Origin: Myxococcales bacterium
Lineage (GTDB): Bacteria > Myxococcota_A > Polyangia > Polyangiales > Polyangiaceae
Length of the DNA stretch: 64,000 bases
Reading direction: 5' to 3'
Assembly: GCA_016704525.1 (NCBI GenBank)
Contig: JADIZX010000009.1
Location: forward strand, 106,625-170,624
The first letter of the stretch is position 1; every line of letters begins with the position of its first letter. The notes below the pieces were generated by a model, which was not told where the DNA came from, searched no databases, and saw only the letters and a list, made by a program, of their open reading frames with translations. The position numbers and the translations under genes are program-made. Below, one piece after another: positions 17,339 to 53,536 of the stretch.

Positions 17339-18517
17339 TTAGCGCGCCGAGAGGAACGCGTCGATCGCCGCGCGGAGCGCCGGGGCCTCCTCGCAGCCCG
17401 GCGCGAGGTGCGCGCACGGGCTCTTCAGCACGAAGGTCGCGGCGCCGAGCTTTCCGGCGAGCTCGAGCGCCGGCCCCGGGTTCACCGCGTGGTCGTTCTC
17501 CGCGACGACGACGAGGGCGCGCGCGCGCACGCGCTTGGCCGCCTCGTCCATCGAGCCGCCGAGCGGCGCCGTCACGTCGTGCGCGAGCATCGCCTCGAGC
17601 TGCCGCCGCCAGTCGTTCCAGTCGAAGCCGGGATCGGCCTCGGCCTCGGCGAGCCACACCGGGAAGCGCTCGCGGCTCGTCTCGCGCGAGCGGTAAGCCG
17701 GGGTCGTGAGGGCGAGCTGGTGGATGTCGAGCACCGCGCGCAGAATGGGCGCTCCCGGGTAGTTTCCCTGGGCGTAGGCGGTGTCGGCCTCGAGGGCGTG
17801 GAGCTCTGCGCTCCACAAGAGCAGGTCGTGCGACGTGAGCCGCGGACTGCCCACGATGGGCACGATGGCGTCCATGAAGTCGGGGTGCGACACCGCCCAC
17901 TGGAAGGCCAACATCCCGCCCATCGAGACGCCCGCCACGGCCCGCACGTGCCGTATTCCGAGGTGCTCGACGAGCAGGCGGTGCTGGCTCTCCACCATGT
18001 CGCGTATGCCGATCTTCGGATACGATAGGCGCGCCTGAGAGGGGCTATTCGACGGCGAGGTGGACACGCCGTCGGCGAGCGCGTCGACCACGATGAGGTG
18101 GTATTTCCCCGTATCGATGAGCTTGTCCCGCGCGAACGCGCCCACGGCCGCCGAGCGCCCGGAGAACCACGTAGGCCACACGATCACGTTGGAGCGCGTG
18201 GCGTCGAGCGTGCCGTAGGTGCGATAGCCCACGACACAATCACGGAGGGTCTCTCCGCTCTCGAGCCGGCACGCGCCGAGGTTCGCGAGGCGTTGGCCGG
18301 GCGGCGCCGCGGCGGCGGCCTTGGGGGAGGTGGCTTGCTGCGGAGGGTCGGAGGCCGACCGCGCACACTGCCCCGGCGCCGCGGCGGGCGCGGCGGGCGC
18401 GACGGGCGCGGCGGGCGCGACGGGCGGCGAGGCGCACGCGGCGAGCCCGAGCGCGACCACGAGCGTGACGAGGGCTGCTGCGGCGATCGCGATCCCGCGC
18501 GCCCGCGCCGCGCTCAT
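17339..18517 (-). CDS. alpha/beta-fold hydrolase (homoserine acetyltransferase-like fold) with signal peptide
   Basis: GVSMGGM nucleophile elbow; ATGA coupling with the upstream gene. Confidence 0.6.
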   Translation of the reverse strand: MSAARARGIAIAAAALVTLVVALGLAACASPPVAPAAPVAPAAPAAAPGQCARSASDPPQQATSPKAAAAAPPGQRLANLGACRLESGETLRDCVVGYRTYGTLDATRSNVIVWPTWFSGRSAAVGAFARDKLIDTGKYHLIVVDALADGVSTSPSNSPSQARLSYPKIGIRDMVESQHRLLVEHLGIRHVRAVAGVSMGGMLAFQWAVSHPDFMDAIVPIVGSPRLTSHDLLLWSAELHALEADTAYAQGNYPGAPILRAVLDIHQLALTTPAYRSRETSRERFPVWLAEAEADPGFDWNDWRRQLEAMLAHDVTAPLGGSMDEAAKRVRARALVVVAENDHAVNPGPALELAGKLGAATFVLKSPCAHLAPGCEEAPALRAAIDAFLSAR

Positions 18518-51506: not shown

Positions 51507-51962
51507 ATTACTCCTTGAATGGTTGAACCACTCGAGCAACAAGCAGGTGGCATGCCAACCCCCCAAATGGCCGACGCGCGCGCTTTCCGCGCCGCGACGC
51601 GCACCTCGCGGTCCACGGCGGGGACGGATGTGGACGGGCGGTCACACACGGACCGAGCCCGCGGGCTCGCGGCGCCGCGGGTCCCGGCTGGACCGCGGTT
51701 CAGCACCCCTCCGCGGCGGCCGCGCGAGCGCTCGCCGATCCCGCGCTCTGCTCGCTCCGGCGCGACTTCGCGCGCGAGCTCGAGCGCTTCCTGGGCGCGT
51801 TGGCGCGAGACGCGGTGCGGCCGCGCGCGTGAGGCGGCGTCCGTCCGCGCGTGGGGCCGACTCGGCGCCCTCGGTCGCGCGCGCGGCCAGTTTTTCGACC
51901 CGCGCGGGGAATATGGTACGCCTACGGTGCTCGCGCCGCCTCGCGCACGGGAGAAACGAAGC

Positions 51963-52967
51963 ATGATCCACGCTCGCCTCGCTACGCTCGCCTCGCTCGC
52001 CTCGCTCGCCTCGCTCGCCTCGCTGCTCGCCACCGCGAGCGTCGGCTGCTCCAGCGGAGCGACGGCCGTGCCCACCGAGGCCGGCGTCGACGGCGGCGCG
52101 ATCGACGGGGCTCCCGATCCGGGCCCGGGCCCGGGTCCCACCGACAAGATCTCCGCGGCTTCGGGCGGCACGATCCGACTCGAGGGCGCGACCCTCACGA
52201 TCCCGCCGGGGGCCCTCTCGGCCGACACGGCCATCACCGCGAAGGCGAACGCGGCGACGAGCTACCCTGGCGCCGAGTCCCTCCGCGGCAAGGGGTACGA
52301 CTTCGGCCCGTCGGGGCTCACGTTCGCGAAGCCGGCCACGCTCAGCGTCGACGTGCCGCCCGGGGTCGACGGCGCGACGCTCGTGTTGGCGAATCTCGAC
52401 GAGAAGACCCGCACGTGGGTGCCGCTCGCCGACTCGAAGCTCAGCGGGACGGCCGTCTCGGCCAGCCTCGCGCACTTCTCGAGCTACGCGCTCTTCGTGC
52501 GGCTCGGCAACGCGAACCTCACAGTCGACTTCTCGGCGTGCGCGACCCCAACCTCCAGCAGGGAAGGCTGGTACGCCGACACCTGCGGCGCCGACGCCGT
52601 GAAGGGCTCCATGGTCGGGCTGAAGCTCGCCGGCGCTGCCGGTGGCCCCTCGGCGGGGAAGAACTGCACGGTGACCTATTCGTTTGGCAAGCTCACGATC
52701 GCGACGGATCTCCCGGCGCCCGGCGGCGGCACCGTCACGTTCGTGACCCACCTCGACGGCGAGCGCGACGACAACGTCATCGCGCAGGGCGACAGGAGCG
52801 GGTCGCCGATTCGCTTCGTTCAGATGCGCGAGGTGCTCCCGGGCGTGCCCGAGAAGGTCATTCGCGCGTCGTTCTGGCTCAACGAAGACCGCGGCCTCAA
52901 CTACGTCAGCGCCTCGAGCGCCGACGGATCCATCGCGTGCGGGGCGGATCCCCGCGCGTCGAACTAG
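51963..52967 (+). CDS. secreted lipoprotein, unknown function
   Basis: GGGAGA RBS; signal peptide encoded partly by a 9-bp tandem repeat (LASLASLASLASL); lipobox VGCSS. Confidence 0.5.
   Translation: MIHARLATLASLASLASLASLLATASVGCSSGATAVPTEAGVDGGAIDGAPDPGPGPGPTDKISAASGGTIRLEGATLTIPPGALSADTAITAKANAATSYPGAESLRGKGYDFGPSGLTFAKPATLSVDVPPGVDGATLVLANLDEKTRTWVPLADSKLSGTAVSASLAHFSSYALFVRLGNANLTVDFSACATPTSSREGWYADTCGADAVKGSMVGLKLAGAAGGPSAGKNCTVTYSFGKLTIATDLPAPGGGTVTFVTHLDGERDDNVIAQGDRSGSPIRFVQMREVLPGVPEKVIRASFWLNEDRGLNYVSASSADGSIACGADPRASN
51986..52024 (+). repeat. 9-bp tandem repeat gcctcgctc x4 within the signal-peptide coding region
   Basis: Seen directly in the sequence. Confidence 0.75.
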
Positions 52968-52979
52968 ACGACGAAGGCC

Positions 52980-53092
52980 GGGGGGGGGGGGGGGGAAGGC
53001 CGGGGGGAAAAAACTAACAGGGGGGGGGCCGCCGGGGGCGGAAAAGGGGGAGCCCCGCGGGGGACGGGGGGGCGGGGGGGGGGGGGGGGGGG
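52980..53092. repeat. cluster of extreme poly-G homopolymer tracts (G17, G6, G9, G7, G18) in a convergent intergenic region
   Basis: Seen directly in the sequence; probable sequencing/assembly artefact or G4-forming element. Confidence 0.8.
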
Positions 53093-53140
53093 CCGCAGGG
53101 CGCGGAAAGGCCGGCAAGACCCTCGAAGCGGCCGGCGCCC

Positions 53141-53536
53141 TCAGAGCAGCGCGGTGCGATCGAAGTAGACCTCGGTGCGCGCGATCTTGTCGCCGCGCAG
53201 GCCGAGCAGGGCCATCCCGTGAAGGCGCTTCTTGTCGCCCCCCGCGATGGGCGTGAAGTCGGCGAGCCAGAGGAACGCGCCCCCCTCCCCCTCCTCGAAG
53301 GCGTGCACTTCCTTCACGCGCCAGTCCATGCGCCACGTCGCGAAGAGCCTCACGAGGTAGGCGCGGACGCCCGCGTGGCCCTCCATCGCGCCGCGGGTGT
53401 TGGGGTCTCGGTACTGGCAGTCTTCGACGTAGCACGCGAGGACCGCCTCCACGTCGAGGCGGTTCCACGCCGCGAGCACCCGCTCAGCGTGCTCCGCCAC
53501 GCTCGGCAAGTGGGCAGTCTCTGCGGGCGCGCTCAT
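53141..53536 (-). CDS. SnoaL/NTF2-like fold protein (start may be the upstream M at 53611)
   Basis: ~130-aa alpha+beta cone-like pattern VLACYVEDCQYRDP... Confidence 0.5.
   Translation of the reverse strand: MSAPAETAHLPSVAEHAERVLAAWNRLDVEAVLACYVEDCQYRDPNTRGAMEGHAGVRAYLVRLFATWRMDWRVKEVHAFEEGEGGAFLWLADFTPIAGGDKKRLHGMALLGLRGDKIARTEVYFDRTALL

Follow-up and report, generated by a model that had tools for sequence, protein, structure and literature searches.

The cluster of long G runs between two convergent genes of the window, by which we mean the whole 64-kb stretch of Polyangiaceae DNA analysed here, is very probably a technical artefact, made of mis-called sequence and representing no feature of the genome. 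As judged from sequence comparison with the same locus in other assemblies, positions 52982-53118 are very probably a degraded, G-overwritten copy of an ordinary strain-variable spacer segment, a 163-bp insert hereafter called B (AGTTGGCTCGTCGACATGCCC...GCGTCCGTGACTAG), and the true sequence at these positions is most likely B or a close variant of it. An artefact is favoured over a real allele because the tract is absent from all other assemblies and because the changes that separate it from B run one way, towards G.

The poly-G cluster and its surroundings

The poly-G runs span window positions 52980-53092, within a 173-bp spacer separating two convergent genes. The upstream gene (51963-52967, forward strand) encodes a lipoprotein-like protein of 334 amino acids with a signal peptide ending in ...ASVGC, and stops with TAG; the protein matched no Pfam family above the curated cut-off. 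The downstream gene (53141-53536, reverse strand) encodes a SnoaL_2 (NTF2-like) protein of 131 amino acids. Both ends of the spacer are genuine: the left part (52968-52981, ACGACGAAGGCCGG) is identical in other assemblies, and the right part (53119-53140, ACCCTCGAAGCGGCCGGCGCCC) is identical in the assemblies that carry B and in those with an empty site. Between them lies a window-specific insert of 137 bp, which holds the poly-G cluster and is placed at 52982-53118 on the forward strand (52981-53117 is equivalent, owing to a one-base placement ambiguity).

The insert consists of 89 G, 24 C, 23 A and a single T, and is thus 65% G. It opens within a G16 run (52980-52995, forward strand), of which the first two G are genuine flank and the other 14 stand for positions 1-14 of B (AGTTGGCTCGTCGA). 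A G6 run (53002-53007) is followed by an A6 run (53008-53013), and a G9 run (53020-53028, forward strand) equals GGGGAGGGT of B with A and T overwritten by G. Three G5 runs are also present in the cluster, and its most degraded part is a G7-C-G19 stretch (53066-53092, forward strand), composed of a G7 run at 53066-53072 and a G19 run at 53074-53092 and aligned to GCAGCGTCCGTGAGGCAGGCGCTGGGG of B. The first-pass annotation had listed runs of G17, G9, G7 and G18 between two convergent genes; the place and the two shorter runs were confirmed, and the two longest runs measured G16 and G19 instead.

Such runs are far outside what the composition of the window, with a G+C content of 71.5%, would give. 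Under independent base draws, the number of G or C runs to be expected by chance in 64 kb is 0.007 for lengths of 16 bases or more and 0.0003 for lengths of 19 or more, and the longest G or C run in the 64-kb window outside the cluster is a C8. The 100 bases starting at 52981 contain 66 G, whereas 100-base stretches average 36 across the window (sd 5.4) and nowhere else exceed 55, and no comparable poly-G cluster occurs elsewhere in the 64 kb. In a scan for further degraded stretches, the remaining composition outliers of the window resembled ordinary high-GC sequence. One of the stretches seen, at 18380-18435, is free of T and is made up of a short unit repeated imperfectly in tandem (GGCGCGGCGGGCGCGAC...); it has the look of normal high-GC DNA, perhaps of a repeat in coding sequence, and not of degraded sequence.

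Phase-variable G/C contingency tracts are known from Neisseria, Campylobacter, Haemophilus and other bacteria; they are found in reading frames or in promoters, usually measure about 7-15 bases and differ in length from strain to strain. Contingency loci and the window tract have in common that long G homopolymers occur in bacterial sequence, and the likeness ends there: contingency tracts sit in a frame or promoter, whereas the window tract lies 3' of both stop codons in a convergent spacer, and the length of contingency tracts varies among strains, whereas the window tract reaches 16-19 bases repeatedly and is wholly absent from other strains. A promoter scan found no promoter-like site at the poly-G tract. 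As written, the sequence trivially contains at least four runs of at least three G with short loops, the pattern by which G-quadruplexes are predicted, in a sequence that we judge not to be real. Nor is a potential quadruplex conserved, the tract being absent in 12 contigs of the same population and in two related Polyangiaceae species.

The same locus in other assemblies

The locus was retrieved through exact matches to three proteins, namely SnoaL, the lipoprotein and a neighbouring hydrolase, which gave 14 contigs from different samples, none of them the contig of the window itself. All belong to the Polyangiaceae population of the window, and their flanks match the window at 96-100% identity (≥99% in most); the record names of several indicate a wastewater metagenome origin, and two are very long MAG contigs of 814 and 617 kb. 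The junction is crossed by 12 of the 14, of which eight have an empty site, three carry B and one holds a 58-bp remnant of B. Poly-G was found in none of these 12 junction-spanning contigs from other samples.

The eight contigs with an empty site (L003, L005, L006, L007, L008, L010, L019 and L022) have a 36-bp spacer, TGAGGGCGCCGGCCGCTTCGAGGGTCCGGCCTTCGTCGTCTAG, and match the window to 52981 before picking up again at 53118. B occurs at exactly the same junction in L001, L020 and L002 and is 100% identical among the three. It is complete in L020 (L020 1488-1650) and in L001, the latter with an extra 12-bp flank deletion (L001 2676-2860), while contig L002 ends inside B, with 129 nt of the segment present and intact. 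The remnant in L021 (L021 3610-3667) comes with small flank deletions and an altered lipoprotein stop. At least four real spacer alleles are hence present, namely empty, B, B with the 12-bp flank deletion, and the 58-bp remnant with flank deletions, and the convergent SnoaL/lipoprotein spacer is a strain-level indel hotspot in this wastewater Polyangiaceae population. The two contigs that fail to cross the junction, L004 and L009, terminate precisely at the stop codon of the SnoaL gene; together with the end of L002 inside B, they indicate that assemblers often break at the polymorphic junction.

A protein-based scan of reference genomes assigned the organism to the Polyangiaceae (Myxococcota) and, outside the population, identified two related Polyangiaceae species (92 and 89% amino-acid identity) that keep the convergent gene pair, with spacers of ~16-26 bp that lack a G tract. 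When metagenomes were scanned for a 21-base pattern from the flank, the hits were five unrelated loci and a single true but truncated one, and gave no allele information.

The allele to be expected in the window can be read from a nearby haplotype marker. A TetR-family gene upstream of the lipoprotein gene contains a 248-bp deletion, whose junction lies at 51703-51704 in the window and which is common to the window and the B carriers: it is shared by the window, L001, L020 (with B) and L021 (with the B remnant). The 248-bp segment is kept in the empty-site contig L019 (L019 2493-2740), and the related species that serve as outgroups (L011 and L012) hold 171-175 bp of it. Because the window shares the deletion haplotype with the B lineage, its strain is expected to carry B or a close variant. 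The affected gene was classified as TetR_C_34, and the deletion joins reading frames into a spurious open reading frame of 482 amino acids (51519-52967), which begins upstream of the real lipoprotein start at 51963.

Collinearity of the insert with B

The likeness between the insert and B was first spotted by eye and then confirmed with a gapped alignment. The insert is collinear with B, with the ordered blocks CTA.C, A-GGGG.GGG, CCGCC, AAA, GGAGC, ACG and CGCAGG. The global alignment score was 73. In 1000 mononucleotide shuffles the scores averaged 32 and never exceeded 60, and when the runs were put in random order the scores averaged 14 and peaked at 44; reversed B scored 28 and reverse-complemented B scored 1. 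Against natural 163-mers from the window, which form a broader null (mean 27.7, sd 12.8), a score of 73 was reached by 1 of 2985. B was the single a priori candidate, and no multiple-testing correction is therefore needed. The start of the insert can also be compared with B without gaps: with both sequences lined up from the left junction, the non-G bases agree at 10 of 15 positions (P = 3e-4) and all eight G are retained. When the insert was cut into 45-nt pieces and these were compared without gaps to L001 and to the window, with G as a wildcard and non-G matches counted, nothing stood out from background, since small indels disrupt the register.

A second scoring scheme treated a G in the window as uninformative and demanded that a G in the source remain G. 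With this dark-call scoring, B reached 86 against a null maximum of 61, and none of 3974 natural 163-mers reached the score of B (z 6.6); the first 84 bases alone gave z 6.4. As the scheme was devised after the pattern had been seen, these values are taken as supporting evidence only.

The differences between the two sequences have a strict direction. All 49 aligned G of B are read as G in the window. The A of B are read as A in 16 cases and as G in 12, and the C as C in 21, G in 12 and A in 3, so that ~40% of aligned A and C became G. T fared worst: a single T was kept, and 15 were read as G, 4 as A and 3 as C, i.e. 22 of 23 aligned T were changed, and the T count fell from 28 in B to 1 in the insert. 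Of the 49 substitutions in total, 39 yield a G, and none replaces one. Relative to B the insert has a net deficit of 26 bases, with 27 bases deleted and 1 inserted, mostly in the last third, where the alignment is ambiguous from G7-C-G19 through the right junction; deletions of T and A dominate near the right end. An origin of the insert from degraded copies of the local flank (AAGGCCGG, three times) was considered and rejected: the internal copies align to unrelated positions of B (CATGCCCG and others) and arise via changes to G.

Ordinary divergence is ruled out as the source of these differences, which amount to ~45% within the insert and to zero in the flank beside it, where L002 and the window share 100% identity across 3,525 bp. 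The collinearity also bears on the literal version of what the first-pass annotation had proposed, namely that pure no-signal poly-G reads bridged a gap and left unrelated junk. The 65% G content of the insert and the breaks of other assemblies at the same site would be compatible with such a fill. The insert is, however, significantly collinear with the allele that occupies the same junction in contigs of its own haplotype, and its non-G bases repeat CTA.C, CCGCC, AAA, GGAGC and CGCAGG of B in order, which makes unrelated junk very improbable. The proposal was thus right about the artefact and wrong about an unrelated fill, the sequence being a collinear degraded copy of B. Its broader suspicion, G overcalling at a place that is hard to assemble, is supported by the absence of the tract in 12 of 12 contigs, by the one-way changes to G and by the breaking of assemblies at the site.

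A real allele would require a one-strand hypermutation of B towards G, or its replacement by a G-rich tract, and a genuine hotspot of quadruplex formation or slippage would result where the two transcripts converge. Hypervariability of the spacer is indeed real, with several true alleles in the population, and indels are compatible with real mutation. Nevertheless, the tract is found in only 1 of 13 junction-spanning sequences (the window and the 12 contigs), its flanks are identical to those of a contig with intact B (L002), and it is absent in the related species. G16 and G19 runs would be highly unstable, yet no strain shows a tract of a different length, and a convergent spacer 3' of both genes offers no obvious target for phase variation. 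To our knowledge, no biological process, in bacteria or otherwise, changes A, C and T to G on a single strand and leaves all G intact. We accordingly regard a real allele as highly improbable, and the strong quadruplex or slipped-strand hotspot that had been put forward as the alternative to an artefact finds no support, being absent from independent assemblies. The most specific form of this idea is a strand-specific, template-independent or damage-bypass rewriting of B in one strain, in which C would be inserted on one strand (read as G on the forward strand) opposite almost any base, to leave a quadruplex-prone G16-G19 tract; we give it hardly any credence.

How the artefact may have arisen

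The following route is proposed for the mis-called copy of B. The strain of the window would belong to the B-carrying lineage, and its B would have been written from degraded calls in which missing information became G, such that G was kept, T was nearly all lost and some bases were dropped. The degraded calls most likely stem from dark or no-signal cycles in two-colour Illumina chemistry, in which G is the dark state. An equivalent route would be software that converts uncalled N to G, an encoding that certain programs use. The bad calls probably reached the consensus at a site that is polymorphic (empty, B and B remnant), where the assembly graph would branch and few good reads of the filled allele would be at hand. 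The flanks would be backed by reads of all strains and the interior of B by those of B-carrying strains only, so a few degraded reads may have been the sole path across, or may have been taken up by a gap-closer or polisher.

The likeness to two-colour G overcalling, as in NextSeq and NovaSeq data, is considerable. Errors run only towards G and true G is untouched, and the calls are unreproduced in independent assemblies (0 of 12). Two-colour chemistry overcalls G where A, C and T signal is lacking, and T>G is a recurrent artefact of the NovaSeq 6000 (PMC13218037). The base most often lost in the insert is likewise T, which fits the published T>G error (PMC13218037). There are also differences: the classic two-colour poly-G is a 3' read tail that is usually trimmed, whereas the window tract is internal to 64 kb, has indels and retains part of the true sequence. 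The degradation along the strand is non-monotonic and is followed by clean sequence, and a simple model of dark cycles in a single read fits poorly, given these two features, the 26-base deficit and the indels, which are atypical of Illumina errors. The internal position, the clean sequence that follows and the indels could stem from several contributing reads, from graph traversal, from a true allele slightly different from B or from another technical route. Furthermore, the degradation begins and ends exactly at the borders of B, which can be explained only if plentiful reads of the empty allele are assumed, in addition, to have backed the flanks.

Another artefact route would be an error made in building or polishing a long-read or hybrid consensus, where empty and B reads, or poly-G short reads, came together in one pile-up. 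A nanopore or PacBio draft would then have held B, and polishing would have garbled its 163 bp; the tract would likewise not be real. The 27 deleted bases and 1 inserted base relative to B, and the prevalence of T and A deletions near the right end, are in line with this route, as is the confinement of the damage to the polymorphic segment, the place at which the reads of a mixed pile-up would disagree. The 814- and 617-kb contigs of the population also suggest long-read metagenome projects. On the other hand, the window is free of indels elsewhere when compared with short-read contigs (100% identity over 3,525 bp and 1,108 bp). The strict one-way change to G, with 49 of 49 G kept, also speaks against a long-read or polishing error, since we know of no long-read error signature of this kind. 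We consider such an error possible but rather unlikely, and favour G overcalling of B. The absence of the tract from every other assembly, its collinearity with B and the one-way changes to G are shown here, whereas the platform, and the step of assembly or polishing at which the calls slipped through, are inferred.

Nature of B and of the convergent spacer

B itself is real, as it is identical in three assemblies, and is unremarkable by every test run. A repeat search found no terminal inverted repeats, and the repeats of B are confined to short internal direct ones (AGCGTCCGTGA and GCAGGCGCT, twice each). No target-site duplication is present at its junctions, CCGG|AGTTGG...GACTAG|ACCC, and no second copy of B was found in the 64-kb window or in ~90 kb of compared loci. 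Rfam gave no match in the B-carrying loci, the folding of B is no better than that of shuffled sequence (z -0.22), and no promoter-like or terminator-like sites were found when the spacer was scanned in its B form and in its window form.

B resembles MITE-like and REP-like intergenic indel elements in being an identical segment that is present or absent at one precise junction in near-identical strains. It differs from MITEs and IS-derived inserts, for which terminal inverted repeats and a target-site duplication are expected, in that B has neither. As the related species are without B, it is probably an insertion that was later lost or trimmed by some strains. The TetR-family regulator next to the locus was probably inactivated in the lineage of the window.

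The identity of some contigs to the window is unequal on the two sides of the spacer. For L003, identity reaches 100% over the 1,440 bp on the SnoaL side but only 95.8% over the 1,011 bp on the lipoprotein side (window 51971-52981, L003 1440-2450), and L007 likewise shows 99.1% on the SnoaL side and 96.4% on the lipoprotein side. This inequality suggests inter-strain recombination with a breakpoint at or near the convergent spacer.

Implications

The data presented here leave no poly-G element to study, and the biological importance of the tract is small. Predictions of G-quadruplexes, repeats or genes from 52982-53118 would be false. Where a poly-G cluster lies inside a metagenome-derived contig, it can be the degraded copy of a real sequence that varies among strains and not pure junk, and the comparison of independent assemblies from the same population can reveal such artefacts without recourse to the reads. 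The real biology that remains is minor, and consists of a strain-level indel hotspot at the convergent spacer of these Polyangiaceae.
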